From a virus (Duplodnaviria; Caudoviricetes): DNA of 59,275 bases. Below, piece after piece: positions 2,015 through 44,794 of the stretch. Location of the stretch: IMG/VR virus record IMGVR_UViG_3300017757_000006, positions 1-59,275 of that record; one strand, written 5' to 3'. The notes under the pieces are model-generated. The model did no database searches and was not told where the DNA came from. It saw only the letters and a list, made by a program, of their open reading frames with translations. The translations under genes and the position numbers were made by a program. The stretch's first letter is position 1; every line of letters begins with the position of its first letter.

Positions 2015-3220
2015 TTATGCGGCATCATAAACGTCATCCCACTTGCCTGTCAAACCAGCAACCTCATATTCTGTTACTCTGTTCTCAGAGAAGTTGGTAT
2101 GATCTGCACCGTTCAGTATCCACTCCAACCACTGTAGGGGATTTTCTTTTACTTTATAATTACCTTTTAGTCCTAATTGTATGAGTCTTCTATCAGTTAT
2201 ATATCTAATATATTGTTTAACTTCTGACTGCTCTAGACCTTCAATGTCACCAAGTTTATATGCAAGGTCAACAAAGTTATCTTCTAACTTCACTGCTTGT
2301 CTTGCCATCTCATATATATGTCCCTTAAATTCATCATCTATAATACGAGGATGTTCTGCACAATATGCCTTGAAGAGTTTTGCAATACCCTCAACGTGGA
2401 TTGATTCGTCACGAATACTCCACTCAACAACCTTACCCATACCCTTCATCTTACCGTAGCGTTGAAAGTTCAACAACATTACGAATGATGCAAATAGTGC
2501 CACACCTTCATTCATTACAGATTTTGCCATTGCAAGTCCAAGTCCACGAACAGTGTTTGGATCACTATCCATCATAAACTCAATCTTGTCTGCCATCTCT
2601 GTATATTCTAGGAAGGCATGATACTCGGCATCAGATAACCCAAGTGTCTCATTAAGAAGTGCATATGCACGTTGGTGTATAGCCTCTCTATTCGCAAACG
2701 AACCAAGCATATTGCGTACTTCATTGTTCTTAAATTTAGGGATAAGTTGGTCGTAATAGTTTTGCCCAACTGCAACATCTGACTGTGTAAACAGTCGTAG
2801 AATGTTTGTGATGTATTCTTTCTCAATTGCACTTACCTTTCCAGACTTCCAATCTGCAACATCTTCAGACAAATCAAGTTCGTCTTCAATCCAGTGTACC
2901 TTCTCATGTCTTGTTGTGATTTCAACTGCCCAAGGATAATGGAATGGTTTGTATGTTTCTGAAAACACCATTAGTCCACCACCTTTTTTCTTTACGAACA
3001 TTTCTGATACAGCTTCGAATTGATTCCAAGATCCAATTAACTTATCGTCAATAAAGATTTGTGGTACAGATCGAGCTCCAGGCACCTTTTGATAAAACGC
3101 AAGACGTTCCTCTTGATTATCCATACGATGTTCTGTGTATTCATATCCATGTGATTTGAACCAGTTCTTTGCTTTCTCACAGAATGGACAATTTGATTTA
3201 CTATAAATTTCTACTTTCAT
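2015..3220 (-). CDS. nrdB: glutaredoxin fused to class I ribonucleotide reductase beta subunit
   Basis: N-terminal YSKSNCPFC...SVPQIFID Grx domain; EAIHQRAY and DESIH diiron motifs; C-terminal ENRVTEY. Confidence 0.95.
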   Translation of the reverse strand: MKVEIYSKSNCPFCEKAKNWFKSHGYEYTEHRMDNQEERLAFYQKVPGARSVPQIFIDDKLIGSWNQFEAVSEMFVKKKGGGLMVFSETYKPFHYPWAVEITTRHEKVHWIEDELDLSEDVADWKSGKVSAIEKEYITNILRLFTQSDVAVGQNYYDQLIPKFKNNEVRNMLGSFANREAIHQRAYALLNETLGLSDAEYHAFLEYTEMADKIEFMMDSDPNTVRGLGLAMAKSVMNEGVALFASFVMLLNFQRYGKMKGMGKVVEWSIRDESIHVEGIAKLFKAYCAEHPRIIDDEFKGHIYEMARQAVKLEDNFVDLAYKLGDIEGLEQSEVKQYIRYITDRRLIQLGLKGNYKVKENPLQWLEWILNGADHTNFSENRVTEYEVAGLTGKWDDVYDAA

Positions 3221-6587: not shown

Positions 6588-6846
6588 CTTCTATTTTCTT
6601 TATTCGGGTTTCTAGTTCATCTATCTTCTTTGTAACATGTGGATACTTCTTTCTCCACGCATCTTCTGGTTGTCTTAACCAATTCCAGTTATATTTATGT
6701 ATTAAGTAATCTAAGAATTGGTCTAATTTACCATAACTCCAGATACCTAATTTAGTGTCCTTAAAGTACGCAAGGAATGCTGCACCGAGCAACGCACCAA
6801 TGATACTTGTGTATATCCATAGAGTGTCATCAAACAATCCCATCAT
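6574..6846 (-). CDS. small membrane protein
   Basis: N-terminal TM IYTSIIGALLGAAFLAYF. Confidence 0.7.
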   Translation of the reverse strand: MMGLFDDTLWIYTSIIGALLGAAFLAYFKDTKLGIWSYGKLDQFLDYLIHKYNWNWLRQPEDAWRKKYPHVTKKIDELETRIKKIEDGNG

Positions 6847-7538
6847 AATCCCTCTGTCAACTTACAGTATTGACCCATACCGTGGTCTTTTACACCATCA
6901 AGTAAACCACTTCTCCAACCTCTCCACTTATCCTTCACTGCTTGCCAGAATGTAAGTGTTCTTATATTACCATAGAAGTTGATATACGTCAAGTCTCCAT
7001 GATGCTTGTATCCCATAACCCACAATGGAACTCTTGTTACGAGATCATTATTGTTTACAACTCTTGTATGTGGTGTCTGAATATTCTTTACAAACTTACG
7101 AGTACCAACACGAGGCGAACCAAATGTAAACAGTTCTTCAACAACTTGGGTTTCTTCGAATCTTGAACATGCAATAGTTGCCATAGCAGCACCTAATGAA
7201 TGTCCAGTGATATAAAATTTCTTTTTAAGATGTTTACTTCTATGAGCAACAACTTGTTCCCATAACTTATTACACTCGCCCACGAAACCAGAATGAACTA
7301 AACCATGTGTCATTGCACCACGAGGCCATGCATTCAAGTCTGCAAGAACATCAGATAGTTCATCTGGTTCTGTTCCTCTAAAACATAGGACATACATCTC
7401 TTTGTTCCATGCGGCATGACATTGAGCGCCATCCACCTCAAAAAACTTATGGGTAAATCCCATACTTCTAAAAATAACTTTTGCTTCCTTACCGTCTAAG
7501 TAAGCATAAGCTGCTAACTTACTCATCTGATTTATCAT
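6843..7538 (-). CDS. class 3 lipase (alpha/beta hydrolase)
   Basis: FRGTE, VHSGF, GHSLGAA nucleophile elbow, TFGSPRVG, NNDLVTRVP, DH; start uncertain (7526-7565). Confidence 0.9.
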   Translation of the reverse strand: MINQMSKLAAYAYLDGKEAKVIFRSMGFTHKFFEVDGAQCHAAWNKEMYVLCFRGTEPDELSDVLADLNAWPRGAMTHGLVHSGFVGECNKLWEQVVAHRSKHLKKKFYITGHSLGAAMATIACSRFEETQVVEELFTFGSPRVGTRKFVKNIQTPHTRVVNNNDLVTRVPLWVMGYKHHGDLTYINFYGNIRTLTFWQAVKDKWRGWRSGLLDGVKDHGMGQYCKLTEGL

Positions 7539-7914
7539 CAGTCTCTTCCTTATTTTTAATAGCACTTTCGTAGTAGAGGATAATCTGTTTCTGTTGTTCG
7601 ATGTATCTTCTTAGTTCTGCAAAATTCTTAGATAAGTTCTCATAGTCCTTTACTGATATTGCAATGTATGAGTCAGCGCCGTTCTTAGCAGAAAACTCTT
7701 GCACAAACTTCTCATAGTTCTCCTCTGGTGAAACTACATAAATTTTAATATCATTCATCTGTACTGCTTTTGGTGACGGTACAGTTGGTATGTTTCTCTC
7801 TACAACTTCTGTTACGGTAACAACTTGTGGTTCTGGTCTAAGTGTTGAACAACTACTCAGTACCACTGTCGCCAGTAACAGACTCAAGGTCATCCCAAAG
7901 CTTATCTGTCGCAT
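7519..7914 (-). CDS. outer-membrane lipoprotein, o-spanin (Rz1-like)
   Basis: Lipobox LLLATVVLSSC, Pro-rich segment, overlaps 3' end of the i-spanin candidate. Confidence 0.75.
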   Translation of the reverse strand: MRQISFGMTLSLLLATVVLSSCSTLRPEPQVVTVTEVVERNIPTVPSPKAVQMNDIKIYVVSPEENYEKFVQEFSAKNGADSYIAISVKDYENLSKNFAELRRYIEQQKQIILYYESAIKNKEETDDKSDE

Positions 7915-15771: not shown

Positions 15772-16039
15772 TTTTTTCTTCCCAAATTTTAAGAACTAGT
15801 TGACCCGTTCTCTTTATTATTCTGTGATACTCCATCTTAGGTATCCTGTATAGTTTTCCTTTTGACATCTCTTCTGGTAATTGATTGTCCATTTGTAATT
15901 TCCAACCTATACCAGATATGACAGATACTTCTCTTGTCCTTTTATCTCTGTGCCAGATTAACTCTTGTTCATCTACAGACTCACTAAAAGTTCTCAGTAT
16001 TGTATCTTCGTGTCTTTGGTCATCATATGGGTTTACCAA
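15764..16039 (-). CDS. small cupin-like protein
   Basis: ELIWHRD...GWKLQMD...IPKMEYHRIIK. Confidence 0.6.
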   Translation of the reverse strand: MVNPYDDQRHEDTILRTFSESVDEQELIWHRDKRTREVSVISGIGWKLQMDNQLPEEMSKGKLYRIPKMEYHRIIKRTGQLVLKIWEEKND

Positions 16040-17991
16040 AAGAAGTTGCCCCCACCAGACAAACCAAGTTGTTTAGCATATCTCGGCATGTTACATGCCC
16101 AATATCCTGCCTTTGTCTTATCTTTTTTATTTGCACAATCATGTCTTGCAGCAAATGATTTTCTTGCCTCTTTGTCATTTAACTTGATTTTTAATCCAGT
16201 TGTATCACCCCATGATACCTTTTTGATATTTCCAGATGATGGGTCTTTGACATAGACATAGTATTTCTTCGGCCCGCCTGCCTTAGGTTTATTTAGTTCA
16301 ACGTCTTTTCCTTGATACTCTGATTCCATCATTGGACAATCTAGTGGAACATTCTCCCCCTCATAGACTGCGTACTTACCGATATCACCTTCCATCAATT
16401 CCTTATTGAACCCTGTAGGATTAAACTCTCCAGACTTATACTCAACTCTTTTCTCTTGGAAGAACTCGTAGTACTTCTCAGAACCAACACGATATTCGTT
16501 TGATTCTATTAAACTTGCAGTCTTGCATTCTTGACAACAATCTTCTGTTCCACAATGCAAATGTTCTTTGAATGAGATGATAGGTTTAGAAGGAGCCATT
16601 TGATTACTTTCTTTTACTTCAGTTTCTTCTTTCTGTCCCTTTGCTTGTTTCCACAAGTCTGCATCACCAGTAGTTCTAGTCTTACCACCAGTGATAAAAG
16701 AGTTAACTCTAGCAAACGCCCACTGCTGTGGTGTTGTGCCAGGGCGGTGTCCTGTCTTCCACGCCGCCATACCTCTATCGTATACTTTCTTTAGAATACC
16801 ATATGAGATACCAGACTTGTCTGCTTTCTTAACAAGTCCTTCAATCTTCTCATCTAGCAACATAAGTTCAACTTCAGGCGGATAATTATATCCCTCTTTA
16901 GGAACACAGTTTGGCACCATTTTGCCGCCCTTCTTCTTCATTCCTTGTTGTGTGTGAGTATCCCAACATGGGTCGTCTTCACCAAACATTTGTTTGAACT
17001 TCTTTGTATGCTTGGATGGTTTAGTCTCTGCACCCTTATCGCCAGGAGCAGGCCCATCCTTTGCTTTTGCAAAATGTGCTGCACGTTTCTTTTTAGTAGA
17101 TACTGACATTTCATCACCATCAGCATCTTTTGCATAATACTTTGCTGGTTCAGTACCTTTTCTATCTTTAATATCTTTGTCTTGTTTTACTTCATATAAC
17201 CACTTCTTGTGAGTAGTACCGTCTTGTTCTGAGAACACAAGATAGTTTGTGCCTCTACGAATAACTTTACCAGATACGCCTGTGTAGTTATCTTCTACAA
17301 TATCACCAATTGCATAGATTGTACCTTCAATGTACATATCACGAATTACATCTTCTTCTGTCTGTTCTACTTGGTGTACAATGAAAGACTCACGAATGCC
17401 CATATGTTTACGAACATCTTTGAATAAAGACATTCCTTGTTTGAAGTTTTTAGGAAGTCCATTCTTAAAAGAATCAAAATCATCAGCAGATGCTGCAGCA
17501 CGCATCTTAGAAGCAGACATCCCTGTCACTCCCTCTGCATCTGGGTCTCTTTCACCAGCAGATACAACCTCAATATTGTCGAACCCATAGTAACCGTGTC
17601 TACCTTCAACACCATTATACTTGTTCAACAATGTATCAAACTCTGTTACACGATCAGAACCAACAACCATCACGACTGATTTATGTCCTTTATTGTGTAG
17701 TGATACTGCAATTTCGAATACTTGTCTCGCTTTATCAACAACAATGTTCCTTGCATGTTTTGGGAACATCTTCTTCATGTAAGCAACTTTCTTACTGTAA
17801 GGAAGAGGGTCTTTCTTAGGGTTCTCTGAGTGTGATGCAAAAACATAGTATGGAGCGCCAGGATTTTTCTTTGCCTGTTTCTCTACTGCTTCTAAAAGTT
17901 TTTCATGTCCTGTAGTTGGTGGATTGAATCTACCAAAGGTGAAAACACATGTATCCCCACGAGCTTCTCTAATGTCTTTGAAACTTTTCAT
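16033..17991 (-). CDS. HIGH-motif nucleotidyltransferase (cytidylyltransferase-like) fused to several small domains
   Basis: FTFGRFNPPTTGHEKL, VVGSDR, MSASKMR; later PCW..VPNCVP, RGMAAWKTGHRPG...ARVNSF, ARKSFAARHDC. Confidence 0.85.
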   Translation of the reverse strand: MKSFKDIREARGDTCVFTFGRFNPPTTGHEKLLEAVEKQAKKNPGAPYYVFASHSENPKKDPLPYSKKVAYMKKMFPKHARNIVVDKARQVFEIAVSLHNKGHKSVVMVVGSDRVTEFDTLLNKYNGVEGRHGYYGFDNIEVVSAGERDPDAEGVTGMSASKMRAAASADDFDSFKNGLPKNFKQGMSLFKDVRKHMGIRESFIVHQVEQTEEDVIRDMYIEGTIYAIGDIVEDNYTGVSGKVIRRGTNYLVFSEQDGTTHKKWLYEVKQDKDIKDRKGTEPAKYYAKDADGDEMSVSTKKKRAAHFAKAKDGPAPGDKGAETKPSKHTKKFKQMFGEDDPCWDTHTQQGMKKKGGKMVPNCVPKEGYNYPPEVELMLLDEKIEGLVKKADKSGISYGILKKVYDRGMAAWKTGHRPGTTPQQWAFARVNSFITGGKTRTTGDADLWKQAKGQKEETEVKESNQMAPSKPIISFKEHLHCGTEDCCQECKTASLIESNEYRVGSEKYYEFFQEKRVEYKSGEFNPTGFNKELMEGDIGKYAVYEGENVPLDCPMMESEYQGKDVELNKPKAGGPKKYYVYVKDPSSGNIKKVSWGDTTGLKIKLNDKEARKSFAARHDCANKKDKTKAGYWACNMPRYAKQLGLSGGGNFFW

Positions 17992-18383
17992 TATTCCGTA
18001 CCCATTCCTCTTGCCTTTTTAAGTCTTTCCAACTCCGACTTACGGAGTTTAACCATTAACTTTTTTGCAATCTTTTTAACTGCAGCGCCCTTAGTTTTCA
18101 TTATTCTATTATCTAGGTTCTGTCTTTGCATCAAAGATAGGTTTGCATATTCGTTTGGTTCTAGTCCAGCAAACTTCTTAATAATAAATTGCTTTGCTTG
18201 TTTATTTGCACGTTGTTTAAGTTTGCCATCTGAGGCTAACTTCTTTTTATTTCTTGCAACCTTTGCCTTGAATGCAGAAGACTTTGTAAGTTTCTTCATT
18301 CGTAAACCCATCTTGCGTCTAGTCGCAACAGACAGCGCTTTACGTTCAGTCAAGTCAGATATGAGATCATTCCATTCAATCAT
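17991..18383 (-). CDS. very basic (Lys/Arg-rich) protein
   Basis: ATGA overlap with upstream gene; nucleic-acid-binding-like composition. Confidence 0.75.
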   Translation of the reverse strand: MIEWNDLISDLTERKALSVATRRKMGLRMKKLTKSSAFKAKVARNKKKLASDGKLKQRANKQAKQFIIKKFAGLEPNEYANLSLMQRQNLDNRIMKTKGAAVKKIAKKLMVKLRKSELERLKKARGMGTE

Positions 18384-19630
18384 TTGTCCCACGCCTTAAT
18401 TGCAGTAAAGTTATTAAAACTAAATTCCATACGGTCTACTAGTTTTACTGCATCACCAGATACCCTGTCGATTGCAACATAACCTTCTGGATTAGTAACC
18501 TTAAATCCATTTGATGTTTTAATGAATGTATCAGTTAATCCCTTGACACTATTTAGTTTCTTAACAATTCCCATCTTTGCATCAACCAAGTGTCCTTGGA
18601 AGGCAATGATGTTCTCTAAATTCTTTGTGTGTTTTTTGACTTCACGAAGATACTCAGTCTGAAGATTGGTATACTTCTCTTTACCTTTGTCACTTTTAAC
18701 TTTGTCTATTTGTTTTTGAATTGCATCGAATACCCACTTCTCGTATCCCTTTGCATGTCCTCTGGGGTCACTAATCTTCTGTCCCTGTCGAACTTTACTA
18801 TTATTGTATGTTTTTAATTGAGCACCGGCAAGTTGTCCTGTAAATACATCCTGTAGTTTTAAGAACTTGTTTAATTGTGCAGAATTAATTTTCCTAAATG
18901 TAGAACCAGCAGATGATAATGATTTAGTGACAACAGCAGTCTCAGTTGCTGTCATAGTTGCCTTACCAGATACATCCTTGTATGTTGCATCGTCCATCCA
19001 AACAGATGAGGGTTTGGTAAGTCCCTTAATGTTTGCACCGAATTTAGCTTTCATCCCTTGCAAATCACTACCAGAATATGTTGTGTGCCATACGACACCA
19101 ATCTTTGAATACTTGATTATTTTGCCCAAGTCAGAGTTTACATCTACTGCATATACGATTGTGTTTGGTTGAAAGGTATAATACTTCTTACCTTCGATAG
19201 TTGTTGTGTCAACATCTTCAGAAGTATACATCAAGTCGCCCTGTAGAACGTCTTTGATACCTAACTTGGAAAACTCTGCAAGTGCAATTTTGAACTTAGT
19301 GTTCAGTGAACCAGAAAGTCCATCTGCATCAATCTCTTCAGATGTTTTGTAGAGTTTTGGAGTTGCGTTGAATACTGACTTCTTTGCAACAAAGAATTTA
19401 CCATCAGCAGGGTCGATACCAGCAAAGATTGCGGGCGCACCATCCCACTTGACAGTCATATTTACAGATGAACGAGATGCACCAGCTAACATGTCTCTGA
19501 GTGAACGAACAAAGTTAATTGCTGCTCTACCGCCAGGCACTCCGAAATTCAAAATTTCGTCTTCGATGTGTTCTAAGTGTAGGTTTTTCCCACCTTTATC
19601 TTCAGCGAGATACCCCGAAAAGTTTAGCAT
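18380..19630 (-). CDS. DUF6267-like protein with ligase-type nucleotidyltransferase motifs
   Basis: KNLHLEHIED; TVKWDGAP, LQGDLM, PEGYVA, AVKLVDR; N-terminus MLNFSGYLAE. Confidence 0.75.
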   Translation of the reverse strand: MLNFSGYLAEDKGGKNLHLEHIEDEILNFGVPGGRAAINFVRSLRDMLAGASRSSVNMTVKWDGAPAIFAGIDPADGKFFVAKKSVFNATPKLYKTSEEIDADGLSGSLNTKFKIALAEFSKLGIKDVLQGDLMYTSEDVDTTTIEGKKYYTFQPNTIVYAVDVNSDLGKIIKYSKIGVVWHTTYSGSDLQGMKAKFGANIKGLTKPSSVWMDDATYKDVSGKATMTATETAVVTKSLSSAGSTFRKINSAQLNKFLKLQDVFTGQLAGAQLKTYNNSKVRQGQKISDPRGHAKGYEKWVFDAIQKQIDKVKSDKGKEKYTNLQTEYLREVKKHTKNLENIIAFQGHLVDAKMGIVKKLNSVKGLTDTFIKTSNGFKVTNPEGYVAIDRVSGDAVKLVDRMEFSFNNFTAIKAWDK

Positions 19631-19668: not shown

Positions 19669-19676
19669 TATTTATA
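19669..19676 (-). promoter_or_regulatory. T4-type late promoter heading the 19.6-6 kb block
   Basis: exact TATAAATA, intergenic. Confidence 0.8.
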
Positions 19677-19687
19677 AGGAAACATAC

Positions 19688-21076
19688 TTAGAACTTTATA
19701 TCACCGAACTTTTCATAGCGTGAATTTTGTCCTTTATCAAAGGCTGGTGTGTCATCTTGTCCACTATCTATTATATCTTCTTGCGCTTCCTGTTCACAAT
19801 CATACAACTTCATCTTACCCCTGTCAATACCCACAACAAACCTTTTGTTTGTGCCAGGGTCATTATATCTGTTTTTCAACTGTTTTACCATCAACTGATT
19901 CAGTCCTTCTAACTCTTCAGTAGATATTAGTGCAAACATCAAATCAGCAGTAGCAGGCAAACCAAATGATTCTGAAGTATCTTCAAGTCCAACATCAGAG
20001 TTTGCATAACCACCACGAGTAGTTTGAGTAGCAGACATAATAGGTAAATTCATTTCAACTGCAAGTCCACGCAGTTCTTCTGCAATCGCCTTGATATAGA
20101 AATAAGAACCAATAGTTGCATTACCCTTGAAACGAGATGACCCACAAATGTTTAGATAGTCAATAAAGATAATATCTGGTGCAAATGATTTTTTCAATGC
20201 AAGTTCTTTGATTAGACTACGAAAGTGTCCACTATGAGCAGATGCAGTAGGATATTCTTTAATGATTAGTCTACCACTTGTTTTCTCATTAATCTTCTTA
20301 ACCCTATCAGTGAACATCTTCTTTGGTAGATTGTGTAAGTCTTCCATAGACACATTCATCAAGTTTGCATCAATACGTTCTGCAATACGTTCTTCTGCCA
20401 TTTCTAAAGTAATGTATAGAACATTCTTACCTTGCATCAAAGTAGATGCAGCCATGTGACACATAAACAACGATTTACCTACACCAGTACCAGCAAGGGC
20501 AATGTTTAGTGTTTTCTGTGGAAGTCCACCTTTAGTAATCTTGTTGAAATACTCTAAGTCAAATTCTAGTTTCTCTTCTTTCTTGTGATAGAATTCAAAA
20601 CGATCTTCTGCGTCTTCAATATAGTTGTGTCCAATATGTTGGTCAAATCCAACTGCAAGTGCCTCAGATAGAATAGATGGAATTGCTTCTTGATTATGTT
20701 GTTTGTCTTTACCTTCAATAATCTGAATACCAGATAAGATTGCATTGTATACTGCTTTGTCTTTACAAAACTTCTCAGTAGTATTAACCAACCACTGCAT
20801 ATCAACTTCAGCTTCATTAAGAGATTCAAGTACCTCAACAACTTTCTGGAATTCAGTACCATTCAAGTCTTTTCTGTTATCAAGTTCAATAGACAAAGTT
20901 TCCTTTGTCGCCATCGCCTGATACTTATCCATGAAGTTGTAAATCTCTTCAAAGAGTATACGATCAGTTTTGTCTTGGAAATATTCACCCTTAATAAAAG
21001 GTAACACCCTACGGGCATACGATTCATTAAAAATGAGGTTACTGAATATTGTCTTTTCTATCGTCATCGCTTGCAT
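19688..21076 (-). CDS. gp41: replicative DNA helicase (T4 gp41-like)
   Basis: ALAGTGVGKS, LEMAEE, IDYLNIC, SATQTTR, ESFGLPATAD, KQLKNRY. Confidence 0.95.
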   Translation of the reverse strand: MQAMTIEKTIFSNLIFNESYARRVLPFIKGEYFQDKTDRILFEEIYNFMDKYQAMATKETLSIELDNRKDLNGTEFQKVVEVLESLNEAEVDMQWLVNTTEKFCKDKAVYNAILSGIQIIEGKDKQHNQEAIPSILSEALAVGFDQHIGHNYIEDAEDRFEFYHKKEEKLEFDLEYFNKITKGGLPQKTLNIALAGTGVGKSLFMCHMAASTLMQGKNVLYITLEMAEERIAERIDANLMNVSMEDLHNLPKKMFTDRVKKINEKTSGRLIIKEYPTASAHSGHFRSLIKELALKKSFAPDIIFIDYLNICGSSRFKGNATIGSYFYIKAIAEELRGLAVEMNLPIMSATQTTRGGYANSDVGLEDTSESFGLPATADLMFALISTEELEGLNQLMVKQLKNRYNDPGTNKRFVVGIDRGKMKLYDCEQEAQEDIIDSGQDDTPAFDKGQNSRYEKFGDIKF

Positions 21077-26090: not shown

Positions 26091-27203
26091 TTATCTAATA
26101 ATATCAATCTTATTCATTGTCTCTTGATTCCAGACTTCTAGTTCTGTACGAACCTTATTCTCTGCAATCATTTTGTTGTAACGCTTGATAGCAAGTTTTC
26201 TCCACCATGCAATCACACCTTCAAGTTCAAATCTATCATAGTTTTCAGCTTTTGTCAATAGATTAGTTTTACCTAATAGAACATCTTTTGCATTAGAGTA
26301 TCCATACTCTCCCATGTAGAATCTTTTCTGTGTGGTAACATCACCAGCCTTTGCAATCTGTTTAGAGAACAACTCATACGCTTTTGTATCGTGTTCCTTT
26401 AGACTTGCTTTGATAACACCTACCATCTTAGTCTGCATTTTTAGTTTACGAGATGATGCACCTTTATGTATCAAGTCTTCGCCACCATTCTTTTCTGTAA
26501 ACCAATCACGCATCTCAAAGTAGATTTCTTCTCCAAGTGTCAATAAAAACTTAGATTGAGTATCTCCCTTGTAACGTAAGAATGGACGCATACCATCATA
26601 CATAGAAGAACCTTTGATGTTACCATAAAGAGATGTTGTCTCAAATAAACAAAACTCTGTATCATATTTCTTGTTTAACATCCTACGAACTTCATGTGAG
26701 TTGCAGATTGCCGCCATCAATTTACCACCAAGATAGTTATATCCAAATGGTTGTACAGGAACAATGTTGAAACCCATGATAGCACGTTTGTTAAAGATAT
26801 CTAAATCTGGAACACCACCCAAGTAATCATTACGAGGTTTTGAATTGATTAGTGGTGAACCTAGTTTGATAAATCCAACCACAGTATTTGTAGTTGTTTC
26901 CTTAACAACTAGTTTCATCTCTTTGCCTGGCGCATTGTCAGGCGAGAATGATGCAACTTTCTCCAACATAGTATCAAAGGTTTGTGATGGAACTTGTACA
27001 ATAGAAAAGTTCATATCCTCTGGATGCATATCATATGATTGAAACATATCATCTTCCAATCCAAATCCTGGCAGTGCAGTAGGAATATTCTTTACACGTT
27101 CAATCTTACGAGCACGAAAATAGTCATCAATGCGTCCAAAGTCTTTGAAGTAAGTCATCAACTTTGTTGCGGCAAATATTGCATCATCTCGTTCTAGTAT
27201 CAT
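26091..27203 (-). CDS. DUF4338 (DruA-like) protein
   Basis: GFIKLGSP, VPVQPFGYNYLGGKLMA, ETTSLYG, SMY, KGDT. Confidence 0.75.
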   Translation of the reverse strand: MILERDDAIFAATKLMTYFKDFGRIDDYFRARKIERVKNIPTALPGFGLEDDMFQSYDMHPEDMNFSIVQVPSQTFDTMLEKVASFSPDNAPGKEMKLVVKETTTNTVVGFIKLGSPLINSKPRNDYLGGVPDLDIFNKRAIMGFNIVPVQPFGYNYLGGKLMAAICNSHEVRRMLNKKYDTEFCLFETTSLYGNIKGSSMYDGMRPFLRYKGDTQSKFLLTLGEEIYFEMRDWFTEKNGGEDLIHKGASSRKLKMQTKMVGVIKASLKEHDTKAYELFSKQIAKAGDVTTQKRFYMGEYGYSNAKDVLLGKTNLLTKAENYDRFELEGVIAWWRKLAIKRYNKMIAENKVRTELEVWNQETMNKIDIIR

Positions 27204-33667: not shown

Positions 33668-34627
33668 TTATGCCGCTTCGGCATACTCAAGTGCTTTATC
33701 CAAAGCGTTGAGTTTCACTTTACGGTTACGTCCGTACCAAGCAGATTGTAATCTACCATCATTTGAACGTCCCTGTAAGTGGTCTGTCATGTTGGTGACA
33801 GAGTTGAATGCAGTCCACCATGTACCCTGAGCAAACTCAGCGCCAGGTTGTACATTCAAGTTCTCAAAAGCAAGTTTTGAGTTGCGAGAAGTAAAGGGCA
33901 GGACACCTTCTACTTTCTCTTTTGCAGGCGCACCGAATACTTCATTGAAGTATTGAATAACATTCTCGCCGGTTGCCTTTTTAGAACCAAGGAACGCAGC
34001 CATTGATTTGTACTGTTCCATCTTCTCACGAGCAATACCCATCTGTTCTTTTACTTCAGCAGGGTCAAATGCCTTACGGTGATTTACCGTAACCATTCTA
34101 TCTGCATTCTGTGATAGAGACAGTGTTAGAGTATTGTTACATACCACACGAATTGGTGTCATACGAATATTAATCGCCTTACCAAACTGGTGTGGATTAG
34201 TGAACAAGAAGTAGTTGTCAGTGACATCACCCTTGAATAATTCAAAAGACTCTTTTGTTTTTGCAAGAGCCCACACCATCTGTCCATCTTTCAATGAACC
34301 AGCAGTGTGCATCTCCATGTCACCAGACATGCAGTACTCGTGGAAAAACTCAAACGCTTCTGAGTTCTGTACTGGATTCCAACCAGTACCAACAACATCT
34401 AATACAGAGTTGTCAGAGGTACGAACAAGCGCCTCTTTGTTTTTGATAGGAACACCTGTTGCAGTAACAAGTGGTTGTTTCTCTACTGTCCAATCAAGTC
34501 CAGCAACCTTTTGGAACTGGTCTGGTGTCAACTCTCGTTCTACCAAAGTACCTAGTCCATGCCAAGGAAGTTCCCCAACATACGCCATTTGCGCTTTTCC
34601 GTCAATCATTTCAAGTTCATGTGCCAT
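33668..34627 (-). CDS. DUF932 phage/plasmid-like protein
   Basis: PWHGLG, AGLDWTV, VQNSEAF, TAGSL, TPIRVVCNNTL, GTWWTAFNSVT..DH. Confidence 0.9.
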   Translation of the reverse strand: MAHELEMIDGKAQMAYVGELPWHGLGTLVERELTPDQFQKVAGLDWTVEKQPLVTATGVPIKNKEALVRTSDNSVLDVVGTGWNPVQNSEAFEFFHEYCMSGDMEMHTAGSLKDGQMVWALAKTKESFELFKGDVTDNYFLFTNPHQFGKAINIRMTPIRVVCNNTLTLSLSQNADRMVTVNHRKAFDPAEVKEQMGIAREKMEQYKSMAAFLGSKKATGENVIQYFNEVFGAPAKEKVEGVLPFTSRNSKLAFENLNVQPGAEFAQGTWWTAFNSVTNMTDHLQGRSNDGRLQSAWYGRNRKVKLNALDKALEYAEAA

Positions 34628-44146: not shown

Positions 44147-44794
44147 TTAAAGTTTAGACATAAATTTTGCAAAGGCAAGTGCGGAAACTTTAGAGTCCCT
44201 ACGTCTTACCCCTTCATTTATATCATTCTTGATTTCGGCAACGTCAACTTCTTTCAGTATACCATTGTTCCATACCCACTCTTTACCTTCCATAATACCT
44301 TCAACAAAGGCTTGGGGTGCAGAAGGGTCTGCAACAATATCTGCCCCAGTGGCACGATAAAAATCATCTTTCACATAATTCGCACCTGATTTACTTTCGA
44401 TAGAACCCATGCCTCTTGAAGAGACACCAAGTTTACCACCGTCTTTAATTAGTGCTTTCGCAATTTCCCCCATCGGAGTTGAGAGCAATTTTGCTTCACC
44501 GACAAAGTTCTTTCCATCCGCTTCCAGTTTTGTGATCATGTGCGATACTCTGTCAAGATTGACAGTAGGGCCTTCTGGATGTCCCAGCTCCCCGAATGCA
44601 CGACCTTCAGCAACAAATTCTTTGTTATAGCGTTTCACTTCTTTATTAAGAACCGCCATTGGGTAGACACGACCATTACGGTTTTTCATGTCTGCCTGCA
44701 TAAAGATTCCACGAATCTTCATATCCTTTTTACCATCCTCTTTTTCTTCAAGGATGTATTCTACGTCTTGTATCTGTTCTGCTATTAGTTTCAT
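44147..44794 (-). CDS. gp21: prohead protease
   Basis: NRNGRVY, GELGHP, GVSSRGMGS, DIVADPSAP. Confidence 0.95.
   Translation of the reverse strand: MKLIAEQIQDVEYILEEKEDGKKDMKIRGIFMQADMKNRNGRVYPMAVLNKEVKRYNKEFVAEGRAFGELGHPEGPTVNLDRVSHMITKLEADGKNFVGEAKLLSTPMGEIAKALIKDGGKLGVSSRGMGSIESKSGANYVKDDFYRATGADIVADPSAPQAFVEGIMEGKEWVWNNGILKEVDVAEIKNDINEGVRRRDSKVSALAFAKFMSKL

Follow-up and report, generated by a model that had tools for sequence, protein, structure and literature searches.

A probable, very divergent relative of DNA- and RNA-joining enzymes with a T4-type head-loading tag, encoded by a marine T4-like phage

In a marine T4-like phage, the product of a DUF6267 gene is probably a distant member of the enzymes that join DNA and RNA, preceded by a tag of the type by which phage T4 loads proteins into its head. 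The gene lies in a stretch of 59,275 nucleotides (positions 1 to 59,275 of the IMG/VR record IMGVR_UViG_3300017757_000006), which as a whole is called the window here and whose relevant features are collected in Table 1. Our preferred reading, tentative and with a little less than an even chance of being right, is that the product is a very divergent covalent nucleotidyltransferase which in this Melnitz-like phage would be packaged by means of its leader together with the products of two neighbouring genes.

Table 1. Position of the DUF6267 gene, its motifs and associated features in the window
Feature	Position	Strand	Description
DUF6267 gene	18380..19630	-	ATG start, 416 aa; candidate covalent nucleotidyltransferase (ligase superfamily)
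Leader MLNFSGYLAE	19601..19630	-	Residues 1-10; T4 capsid-targeting-like; predicted gp21-type cut after L-A-E, before D11
HLEH	19568..19579	-	Residues 18-21; His motif near the N-terminus, where helix 22-48 begins; outside the canonical ligase motifs
TVKWDG	19439..19456	-	Residues 59-64; motif I candidate; K61 is the proposed nucleotidyl-lysine
LQGDL	19232..19246	-	Residues 129-133; motif III candidate, Asp instead of the usual Glu
Basic helical insert	18551..18949	-	Residues 228-360; length varies across the family
EGYV	18476..18487	-	Residues 382-385; motif IV candidate
VKLVDR	18431..18448	-	Residues 395-400; motif V candidate, single Lys K396, then R400
TATAAATA	19669..19676	-	Match to the T4-type late-promoter consensus, 39 nt before the DUF6267 ATG
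Small, very basic protein	17991..18383	-	130 aa from ATG, pI 10.9; own leader MIEWNDLISDLTE/R
652-aa multi-domain protein	16033..17991	-	N-terminal NMNAT-like HxGH nucleotidyltransferase with leader MKSFKDIRE/A, then DUF5824 and further regions
gp21-type prohead protease	44147..44794	-	Pfam Peptidase_S77, E 2.2e-32; predicted remover of leaders
A slash marks the cut at the end of a leader.

Results

The DUF6267 gene and its family

An earlier note on this DNA had described the open reading frame and called its product DUF6267-like; its coordinates were recovered as claimed, for a minus-strand frame that starts with ATG and encodes 416 aa, and the family assignment is confirmed by a match to Pfam DUF6267 (PF19782) over residues 16-411 with an E-value of 1.3e-102 (score 344.4 bits, cut-off 27; positions 1-375 of the 376 in the profile). 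No second ORF of at least 55 aa overlaps the gene in the other frames of its strand. The protein, which is basic (pI 9.4 overall) and has a mass of 46 kDa, also belongs to phrog_455 (E 6e-89). DUF6267 comprises 2,641 clusters at 50% identity and corresponds to T4-GC 71 in the annotated records of S-PM2 and P-HM2. Among cultured phages, 399 records are matched, and most of these carriers are cyanophages. Literature searches retrieved no paper on DUF6267 and, with the S-PM2 locus tags, nothing relevant; NCBIfam holds no family for the protein, and feature searches of the ESM Atlas with the whole protein and with residues 12-225 returned only unnamed viral clusters at scores of 0.84-0.90.

Three alignments were used to assess conservation, a main family alignment of 101 members that are 34-61% identical to the query, a cross-subfamily alignment of eight long and short forms at 23-40% identity, and an alignment of 71 short forms of 290-310 aa.

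Ordered motifs and their conservation

The strings HLEH, TVKWDG, LQGDL, EGYV and VKLV (residues 395-398), to which the earlier note had drawn attention, are all present and occur in the order claimed, and the long helical insert that it had placed before motif IV is borne out by seven helices between residues 228 and 360 of the AlphaFold2 model. The K-x-D-G, Q-G-D, E-G and K positions are among the most conserved columns of the family. The reading of motif V needs one correction, as it is K-L-V-D-R and not the K-x-K of ligases and capping enzymes.

Twelve residues, H21, K61, D63, G71, N156, Y160, G178, H182, N277, G383, K396 and N407, are invariant in the 101 members, and those conserved in at least 90% of them include H18, G64, P66, K84, Q130, G131, D132, E382, V385, L397, V398, D399 and R400. 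The K-x-D-G, Q-G-D, E-G and K columns are invariant also in the eight-sequence alignment across long and short forms. In the 71 short forms, the insert of which is about 100 aa shorter, K34, D36, G37, Q103, E271, G272 and K283 are invariant and G104 and D105 are conserved in at least 90%; HxEH is kept as well, with H5, H8 and D11 invariant. Neither the Rnl1 nor the Rnl2 profile contains an equivalent of the N-terminal element HxEHxED. The insert itself is strongly basic (pI 9.96 for residues 226-362).

Three deviations concern residues that are expected in a ligase. Motif I is without the Arg of KxDGxR, with P66 in that position, motif III has Asp in place of Glu, and the position of the second Lys of motif V (398) is Val in at least 90% of the 101 members. 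To our knowledge, the second lysine of motif V is needed by all ligases and capping enzymes studied; R400 might replace it. A loose regular expression for the ordered motifs matched 15 of 100,000 composition-preserving shuffles (K.DG alone, 25,761), a figure which is generous because the pattern was defined after the sequence had been seen. Conservation is a stronger argument for the motifs than the shuffle statistics.

Predicted structure and fold matches

The AlphaFold2 model of the protein (pLDDT 92.0, pTM 0.88) shows K61 as the last residue of a strand (56-61), with xDG in the turn that leads to the next strand (67-72); QGD is found on strand 128-136, and EG-YVAID and AVKL form two adjacent C-terminal strands with K396 in strand 394-397. 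The predicted layout of motifs on strands is that of the ligase motifs I, III, IV and V, and the conserved QGD, with Asp for Glu, and E382-G383 are located on or at the start of predicted strands. Past K396 the modelled chain continues for 20 residues, which form one helix, and an OB domain is missing.

Comparison of the model by Foldseek, the check proposed in the earlier note, yielded DNA and RNA ligases as neighbours of a confident model, but no solved structure in the PDB at E<=1e-3. The best PDB match, Thermococcus DNA ligase 3rr5, has an E-value of 0.083, a probability of 0.63, a TM-score of 0.19 (query) and an rmsd of 9.4 Å over 190 columns. All nine PDB matches with a probability of at least 0.25 are ATP-dependent DNA ligases, each aligned over about 190 columns; the best 50 comprise 12 ligases and 25 carbonic anhydrases, the latter at probabilities of 0.03-0.04, and the T4 Rnl2 entries 2hvq, 2hvr and 1s68 are found within the same 50, whereas Naegleria NgrRnl (5cot) is not. 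Among the viral models of BFVD, the main named matches outside the family are nine RNA ligases within ranks 24-50 (E 3.7e-3 to 0.18), such as those of Agrobacterium phage Atu_ph07 (E 3.7e-3, probability 0.94) and Lactococcus phage phiQ1 (E 1.3e-2, probability 1.00, rmsd 5.0 over 169 columns); an iridovirus model named 'polynucleotide kinase/ligase' matches at E 5.4e-2. The modelling supports a ligase-superfamily fold of DUF6267 only moderately, and the resemblance to ligases is weaker than at first sight.

Sequence and profile comparisons with ligases

With phmmer, the protein found no ligase in the PDB, and the family profile matched there only ribosomal protein eS8 and coiled coils, both on the helical insert. 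Alignment of the family by hhalign with single sequences of T4 Rnl1, Rnl2 and gp30 and with family profiles of Rnl1 (35 sequences) and Rnl2 (36 sequences) gave probabilities of 0.05-4%, with an E-value of 0.1 over 20 columns for the Rnl1 profile and of 0.46 for the Rnl2 profile (0.12 when the short-form profile was used); reduced alignments, global mode and low mact still produced no significant ligase match. The sole consistent piece covers 17-20 columns at motif IV-V; with T4 Rnl1 there is a single local profile match, in which EGYV falls on residues E227-G228 of Rnl1. Greedy hhalign put QGD on F-G-E99 of Rnl2 in a non-significant alignment. In a Pfam scan of the 101 members, RNA_lig_T4_1 ranks third by frequency, yet it matches four of them only (best E 6.2e-4). 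HMMs built from Rnl1 and Rnl2 alignments weakly match many family members in the helical insert, which, being the topologically wrong place, led us to treat these matches as compositional.

Assignment to an established class was rejected in three cases. The protein has no match to the Rnl1 family (PF09511) and its helical region is situated before motif IV and not after motif V; it has no Pfam match to the Rnl2 family (PF09414) and its motif I is KWDG and not K-x-H-G; and for an ATP-dependent DNA ligase (PF01068 plus OB) there is no PF01068 match in the whole window, no KxDGxR and no OB domain.

Neighbouring genes

The main and regular partner of DUF6267 is an NMNAT-like HxGH nucleotidyltransferase. 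Here, it is the N-terminal part of the 652-aa protein, which matches Pfam CTP_transf_like and DUF5824 as well as phrog_3041 and phrog_395, annotated 'cytidyltransferase', and in which GRFNPPTxGH and SASxxR are conserved. Of 54 DUF6267 loci, 44 have a homologue downstream in the same orientation, at a distance of at most 11 nt in 13 of these, and the domain is fused on either side of DUF6267 in 11 of the 20 long forms tested. The small basic protein, the Melnitz orthologue of which starts MKKFSELTSELIE/R, is less regular, with a homologue following DUF6267 in 15 of the 54 loci. Directly upstream, a gp41-like helicase is encoded here and in 42 of 59 related loci; the gene order in S-PM2 is gp43-UvsX-gp41-...-DUF6267.

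In one relative, P0013, DUF6267 is preceded at the N-terminus by a P-loop kinase, which BLASTP aligns to the kinase domain of T4 Pnkp (E 1e-4, 23% identity over 149 residues). Such a kinase fusion was found in one of the 20 long forms tested, and no kinase adjoining DUF6267 was identified in the window. A reading as a tRNA-repair enzyme was considered and not adopted, because an anticodon-nuclease context was not seen and the kinase partner is rare. We know of no described RNA repair system which uses an NMNAT-like HxGH nucleotidyltransferase.

Leader, late promoter and packaging

The N-terminus of the DUF6267 protein (MLNFSGYLAE/D) follows the pattern of the leader of T4 IPII and IPIII (MKTYQEFIAE/A), and, as for T4-type cargo, about ten residues end in (L/I)-x-E and the phage encodes a gp21-type protease. 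The leader is predicted to be disordered, with a pLDDT below 50 for residues 1-11 of the AlphaFold2 model. A [LIVM]xE triplet ahead of HxEH is present in 80 of the 101 family members, most commonly ending at residue 10 (32 members), while 16 members have no leader at all; by pattern, a leader is found in 56 of 74 related loci. It is absent from all 71 short forms and from the orthologues of Xanthomonas phage XaC1 and the four cyanophages examined, P-HM2, S-CAM9, S-PM2 and S-CREM2. Judged by these sequences, the leader is a detachable module.

The octamer TATAAATA occurs ten times in the window, each time on the coding (minus) strand, against 4.2 copies expected on both strands together, and it is found in the same place, 36-39 nt upstream, in the nearest relatives (L010, L013, L015 and L016). 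Across the family, 10 of 66 loci have an exact copy in the 70 nt before the gene, compared with 0.9% of random windows, and the other 56 have none upstream. On this sequence evidence, the gene is probably transcribed late in the Melnitz-like phage. As a sigma-70-like site matching 11 of 12 positions lies about 170 nt upstream, within the helicase gene, early transcription is possible as well.

In S-CREM2, the cytidylyltransferase gp154, which starts MKNFSSFLTE/A, is present in the virion proteome, whereas the leaderless DUF6267 protein gp87 is not listed in the published virion proteome table of the same phage, a pair that amounts to a natural control for packaging. The cytidylyltransferase family T4-GC190 is also reported from S-SM1 virions (PMC3037559). 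In the literature text searched, no DUF6267 protein has proteomic support as a virion component, and the Melnitz paper, in which 'mass spectrometry' does not occur, contains no virion proteome. That the enzyme is virion-borne, as the earlier note had proposed, is plausible for the Melnitz-like phage, where the ten-residue resemblance, the late-promoter consensus and the gp21-type protease point to it, but the proposal does not carry over to the short forms or to the leaderless cyanophage orthologues, among them the unlisted protein of S-CREM2.

Discussion

Proposed function of the DUF6267 protein

We propose that DUF6267 is a divergent member of the covalent nucleotidyltransferase superfamily, which includes the ATP- and NAD-dependent ligases and the capping enzymes. 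The more specific RNA ligase that the earlier note had named is a candidate only. K61 in the K-W-D-G loop would attack a nucleotide donor, by default presumed to be ATP, to give an enzyme-Lys-NMP, while D132 of motif III, E382 of motif IV and K396 and R400 in the motif V region would hold the nucleotide and metal. The NMP would then be transferred to a 5'-phosphate end, which would subsequently be sealed, and the basic helical insert may bind nucleic acid in the role that an OB or C-terminal domain has elsewhere. In the Melnitz-like phage, the T4-style leader would direct the protein to the core of the prohead; there, cleavage behind L-A-E by the gp21-type protease would release a mature enzyme starting at D11, to be carried inside the capsid and delivered to the host along with the DNA. 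The small basic protein and the NMNAT-like HxGH nucleotidyltransferase would be co-delivered with it.

Alternative readings

A nucleotidyl transfer to an acceptor other than a polynucleotide end is doubtful, though the likeliest of the alternatives. The enzyme could operate with its NMNAT-like partner in a small-molecule or protein-modifying pathway, for example an NAD-related or a dinucleotide one, or it could AMPylate host proteins after injection. In favour of such a role are an NMNAT/PPAT-type HxGH enzyme with intact signature motifs as the dominant and most conserved association, in loci and fusions alike, the rarity among fusions of the kinase, the classical end-healing partner, and motifs I, III and V, all of them off the ligase consensus, next to an extra invariant HxEHxED foreign to the Rnl1 and Rnl2 profiles. 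The structural neighbours speak for polynucleotides, however, as the named non-family BFVD models and the PDB matches with a probability of at least 0.25 are polynucleotide ligases; in addition, the insert is as basic as expected for nucleic-acid binding and the kinase fused in P0013 resembles T4 polynucleotide kinase. No member of the superfamily is known to act on small molecules or proteins.

The location of the gene in the replication block, downstream of the gp41-like helicase, would instead suit a cytoplasmic DNA ligase which replaces a missing T4 gp30 in marine T4-like phages and joins Okazaki fragments or closes nicks in concatemers ahead of packaging, with a leader unrelated to capsid targeting; we regard this as unlikely. 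The complete genomes of Melnitz, S-PM2, P-HM2 and S-CAM9 are without PF01068 and PF09414 matches and Melnitz, the sole carrier searched for PF01653, is without a match to that family too, while T4 possesses gp30 and no DUF6267, and gp30 is listed among the quasi-core genes missing from some marine cyanophages (Petrov et al., PMC2993671). The most probable PDB matches, all DNA ligases, and the leaderless cyanophage orthologues fit a gp30 substitute as well. Against it stand the missing OB domain in a protein that stops 20 residues past motif V, a late-promoter consensus in place of an early or middle context, and a leader like that of the neighbouring NMNAT-like protein, the family of which occurs in virions. 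Furthermore, the distribution of ligases and DUF6267 is not strictly complementary, since both a PF01068 ligase and an RNA ligase occur beside a DUF6267 homologue in Xanthomonas phage XaC1. A further point against it is that phages without a ligase are usually explained by the NAD-dependent LigA of the host.

A more daring, and improbable, idea is that DUF6267 and the NMNAT-like enzyme constitute an undescribed two-enzyme joining system delivered by the capsid, for which two versions can be envisaged. Firstly, DUF6267 could be an NAD+-using ligase in which the HxEHxED helix takes the role of domain Ia in bacterial LigA, and the HxGH partner would rebuild NAD+ from the released NMN and ATP, so that sealing would proceed even in a host whose NAD+ had been depleted by a defence system. 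Secondly, the HxGH enzyme could make an A(5')pp(5')N end, by linkage chemistry as in NAD and FAD synthesis, and DUF6267, with its crippled motif V, would mainly perform the sealing step.

Least probable is a non-catalytic internal head or DNA-binding protein with KxDG, EG and K as a structural relic or coincidence, which would agree with the weak Foldseek statistics and a PDB list crowded by carbonic anhydrases, with a ligase homology detected by no profile method and with a basic charge like that of T4 internal proteins, but conflicts with the invariance of H21, K61, D63, N156, H182, N277, K396 and N407 in 101 sequences and subfamilies at 23-40% identity, polar and charged residues typical of an active site and not of a packing protein, with ordered motifs in so few shuffles, and with the persistence of the family in leaderless form in four cyanophages and every short form, which indicates a role outside the capsid.

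Significance

Among the unannotated genes of marine T4-like phages, DUF6267 ranks with the most widespread. If the protein, as we tentatively propose, is an active joining enzyme, it would provide ligase-type activity for Melnitz, S-PM2, P-HM2 and S-CAM9, in which no ATP-dependent DNA ligase or Rnl2-type RNA ligase was found, and would represent a structurally odd branch of the ligase superfamily which is without an OB domain and has a basic helical region inserted internally, an additional His motif and only one Lys in motif V. [quoted passage not shown] That DUF6267 is so constantly paired with an NMNAT-like enzyme suggests a chemistry foreign to known RNA and DNA repair systems.

Comparison with known systems

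With the OB-less RNA ligases, T4 Rnl2, T4 Rnl1 and the viral models of BFVD, DUF6267 shares the order of motifs, a lysine loop and then predicted strands with the acidic residue, with EG and with K, and, as T4 Rnl1 and Rnl2, it has no OB domain. Its motif I (K-W-D-G-A-P) is, like that of Rnl1 (K-E-D-G-S-L), without the Arg of DNA ligases, and the model predicts an extra helical region which, as in RNA ligases, could bind RNA. Unlike RNA ligases, DUF6267 has this region ahead of motif IV instead of behind motif V, only one Lys in motif V, Asp in motif III and an invariant N-terminal HxEHxED; the protein reaches an hhalign probability of at most 4%, has no PF09414 or PF09511 match, and shows Foldseek E-values of 3.7e-3 to 0.5.

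The nucleotidyltransferase domains of DNA ligases, those of Thermococcus (3rr5), human Lig IV (3w5o) and human Lig I (1x9n), have KxDG in common with DUF6267 and are the best-scoring solved structures, at E-values of 0.08-0.5, TM-scores of 0.16-0.19 (query) and rmsd values of 8-9 Å. In contrast to these enzymes, DUF6267 is without a DNA-binding domain, an OB domain, the Arg of motif I and the K-x-K of motif V.

The ten-residue leader ending in aliphatic-x-Glu resembles those of T4 IPI-III and Alt (Alt, MELITELFDE/D), and as for the T4 internal proteins, the phage has a late-promoter consensus, a gp21-type protease and one type of leader on unrelated neighbouring proteins. The putative cargo, however, would be a 46-kDa enzyme and a 652-aa multi-domain enzyme and not small anti-restriction proteins; many DUF6267 members are leaderless, and processing and packaging are predictions from sequence. 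With the kinase-ligase systems, such as T4 Pnkp plus Rnl1, fungal Trl1 and the iridovirus PNK/ligase fusions, DUF6267 has in common that P0013 joins it to a T4-Pnkp-like kinase, but this is the case for a single one of the 20 long forms, and the usual partner of DUF6267 is the NMNAT-like HxGH enzyme.

The DUF6267 gene and its conserved motifs

The 59-kb window, which comes from an uncultured virus and is 42% complete by CheckV estimate, carries every gene on its minus strand and represents a T4-type myophage, with a T4-like gp23 major capsid protein, portal, sheath and large terminase, a gp21-type prohead protease, a family B DNA polymerase, RecA/UvsX, ribonucleotide reductase and a DnaB-like helicase. 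Its closest cultured relative is Methylophilales phage Melnitz, whose DUF6267 orthologue is 76.9% identical and annotated as 'hypothetical protein'.

The open reading frame called in the earlier note is exact in coordinates, strand and length, and its product, a basic protein (pI 9.4) spanning the full Pfam DUF6267 length (E 1.3e-102), bears all five proposed motifs, HLEH, TVKWDG, LQGDL, EGYV and VKLV, in the proposed order. The long helical insert noted ahead of motif IV appears in the AlphaFold2 model as seven helices (residues 228-360; pI about 10). When the protein was shuffled 100,000 times, a loose ordered-motif pattern turned up in 15 of the shuffled sequences; since this pattern was written post hoc, conservation weighs more than the shuffle figure. 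K61, D63, G383 and K396 are among the columns that never vary in 101 DUF6267 members, and conservation reaches 90% or more at G64, Q130-G131-D132, E382, V385 and L397-V398-D399-R400. The K-x-D-G, Q-G-D, E-G and K columns are still invariant between subfamilies at 23-40% identity; in the short forms (n = 71), a distinct subfamily of 289-320 aa with a much smaller helical insert (IMG/VR loci L093-L172), each of them is either invariant or conserved to 90% or more.

A likely ligase-superfamily fold

Built on the alignment of 101 sequences, the model has high confidence (pLDDT 92.0, pTM 0.88), and its pLDDT drops below 50 at residues 1-11 alone. A strand ends at K61 and leads through the xDG turn into a second strand, QGD lies on a strand and, after the seven-helix block, two adjacent strands bear EG-YVAID and AVKL, a predicted secondary structure that fits the nucleotidyltransferase domain of ligases. 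The Foldseek comparison that had been proposed as a check ranks DNA ligases first in the PDB and names RNA ligases in BFVD, but with weak E-values. No PDB match reaches E ≤ 1e-3; the top match is the Thermococcus DNA ligase 3rr5 (E 0.083, probability 0.63, TM 0.19; rmsd 9.4 A over 190 columns), all nine matches with a probability of at least 0.25 are ATP-dependent DNA ligases, and the best 50 comprise 12 ligases, 25 carbonic anhydrases (probability 0.03-0.04) and 13 other proteins, with three entries of T4 Rnl2 among these 50. In BFVD, the 19 matches at E ≤ 1e-3 are phage proteins, unnamed, 'uncharacterized' or 'cytidyltransferase-like', one being labelled NrdB; the best of them align at TM 0.5-0.9, so that the group reads as DUF6267's own family. 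Nine named RNA ligases occupy places in ranks 24-50, the best from Atu_ph07 (E 3.7e-3, probability 0.94) and another from phiQ1 (E 1.3e-2, rmsd 5.0 over 169 columns).

Neither phmmer nor family-profile searches of the PDB gave ligase homology for the protein or DUF6267, hhalign of DUF6267 against T4 Rnl1, Rnl2, gp30 and the Rnl1/Rnl2 profiles was not significant, and an NCBIfam search returned no family. Faint signals are a match of 17-20 columns to Rnl1 motif IV-V (E 0.1 and 0.0098, as single comparisons) and of Pfam RNA_lig_T4_1 to 4 of the 101 members (best E 6.2e-4). Although the confident model, the fitting strands and the ligase-biased matches favour the ligase fold claimed earlier, it is graded as likely and not established, because the structural statistics are modest and the sequence tests negative.

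Leader sequences, promoter matches and probable packaging

Residues 1-10 of the protein (MLNFSGYLAE/D), disordered in the model, resemble the T4 capsid-targeting sequence, read from the T4 sequence as MKTYQEFIAE/A in ipII and ipIII and MELITELFDE/D in alt; a published account describes it as conserved among the T4 internal proteins and enough to encapsidate foreign proteins (PMC3012670). The gp21-type protease of the window would cut off this leader. By pattern, leaders occur in 80/101 DUF6267 members, most commonly ending at residue 10, and in 56/74 related IMG/VR loci; 16 of the 101 members have none and start directly at the HxEH motif. The leader thus behaves as a detachable module. The next gene, encoding a small basic protein (pI 10.9), has its own leader (MIEWNDLISDLTE/R), as does the NMNAT-like neighbour (MKSFKDIRE/A), in whose homologues a leader directly precedes the first Rossmann strand in 37 of 40 cases, by pattern or by eye. 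T4-like leaders also open three other proteins (see the table). The phage may load a whole protein set into its head.

A copy of the late-promoter consensus TATAAATA lies 39 nt upstream of the DUF6267 gene. The window has ten copies, every one on the coding strand, against 4.2 expected over both strands (3 of 100 shuffles reach ten); several closely precede structural genes, those for the major capsid protein and sheath among them. Exact copies at most 70 nt upstream are found in just 10/66 related loci, a roughly 17-fold enrichment over the 0.9% background. Within the 3' end of the helicase gene, some 170 nt ahead of the DUF6267 ATG, stands a sigma-70-type match (11/12); the region shows no enrichment of sites of this type (7 observed versus 16.3 in shuffles).

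Features of the window, all on the minus strand
Feature	Position	Remarks
Glutaredoxin fused to ribonucleotide reductase small subunit	2015-3220	
Class 3 lipase domain protein	6843-7565	E 2e-23
Leader protein MKTFRQHLLSE/Q, 129 aa	8716-9105	no family
Leader protein MKNFSKFITE/K, 135 aa	10636-11043	no family
Leader protein MKSLVELTKISE/E, 170 aa	13098-13610	NT5C 5'-nucleotidase-like, E 9.2e-6
NMNAT-like nucleotidyltransferase, 652 aa	16033-17991	
Small basic protein, 130 aa	17991-18383	
DUF6267 protein, 416 aa	18380-19630	
Sigma-70-type match	19799-19827	TTGACA-17-TATGAT
370-aa protein	26091-27203	adjoins DNA polymerase gene; marginal Pfam match to Druantia protein DruA, E 1e-6, 28.6 bits (cut-off 27)
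DUF932 protein	33668-34627	E 7.5e-41; between clamp-loader and SbcC/Rad50-like genes
TATAAATA sites	3836, 12020, 19669, 40872, 41476, 42898, 44135, 45130, 49815, 56275	coding strand

No leader is present in the four cyanophage orthologues examined (P-HM2, S-CAM9, S-PM2, S-CREM2), in the homologue of Xanthomonas phage XaC1 or in any of 71 short forms, which always start M-(K/Q)-N-x-H-(L/I)-E-H-P-E-D. S-CREM2 is a natural control: its leader-bearing cytidylyltransferase gp154 (MKNFSSFLTE/A) is listed in the virion proteome with three peptides, whereas its leaderless short-form DUF6267 protein gp87 (58890-59777) is absent from that table. For S-SM1 virions, the main text of Sullivan et al. (PMC3037559) likewise reports the cytidylyltransferase T4-GC190 and not T4-GC71, the label that DUF6267 carries in the S-PM2 and P-HM2 records. 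The virion-borne location put forward earlier is thus made plausible for this phage by leader, late-promoter consensus and protease, but not by the leaderless relatives; packaging in the head is a reasonable inference for the lineage of the window phage, and cannot be essential to the function of the DUF6267 enzyme.

Partner genes and fusions

The DUF6267 gene lies between a gp41-like helicase gene, upstream in 42/59 related loci, and the NMNAT-like gene, a gene order maintained in S-PM2, P-HM2 and S-CAM9. The NMNAT-like HxGH nucleotidyltransferase, with conserved signatures GRFNPPTxGH and SASxxR, is the constant partner: of 54 loci with sufficient flank, 44 encode it downstream on the same strand, 13 of them at most 11 nt away, and 11 of the 20 long members scanned have it fused to one side or the other of DUF6267; the PHROG profile matching the protein is itself such a fusion. 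Besides the NMNAT-like domain, the 652-aa neighbour contains a stretch that matches a PHROG wrongly labelled 'ribonucleotide reductase alpha subunit', a DUF5824 domain and, at the C-terminus, a phrog_7595 region. The lengths of related ORFs span about 220 to 1214 aa, and the neighbour may be a polyprotein cleaved by the head protease. One long relative, P0013, carries in its place a P-loop kinase similar to the polynucleotide kinase domain of T4 (pairwise E 1e-4), the sole hint of classical end healing.

In the S-PM2 record (NC_006820, locus L004; 3992-5771), the DUF6267 homologue is split in two, p141 covering profile positions 1-157 and p142, annotated cytidyltransferase, positions 156-376. 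A 591-aa S-PM2 protein in BFVD covers the whole fold (TM 0.88). Together, these findings point to a frameshift in the record, or a sequencing difference, and to a natural DUF6267-cytidyltransferase fusion.

Relation to known ligases

That DUF6267 replaces the ligase in phages without a known one fits Melnitz, S-PM2, P-HM2 and S-CAM9, DUF6267 carriers without a match to PF01068 (ATP-dependent DNA ligase) or PF09414 (RNA ligase); PF01653 (NAD-dependent ligase) had no match in Melnitz, the sole genome searched for it, and T4, the positive control, has gp30 and lacks DUF6267. However, DNA ligase, RNA ligase and a DUF6267 homologue coexist in XaC1, and a replicative role for the protein is also made less likely by its leader, its late promoter and the absence of an OB domain. 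In the literature, no paper was found naming DUF6267, PF19782, phrog_455, DUF5824 or PF19141, and the word 'ligase' is absent from the Melnitz paper.

Most likely, the DUF6267 protein is an enzyme of the ligase superfamily that has diverged very far; in this lineage it is probably packaged, and it would work with the NMNAT-like nucleotidyltransferase. Its earlier reading as a covalent nucleotidyltransferase is partly supported, in that the motifs are conserved and the model fits, but motifs I, III and V depart from the consensus, and two departures, the single lysine of motif V and the His motif at the N-terminus, would also be compatible with non-ligase chemistry. Compared with DNA ligases, motif I has Pro at the Arg position; motif III has Asp in place of the Glu of the ligase consensus, and in motif V (K-L-V-D-R) Val replaces the second lysine of ligases.
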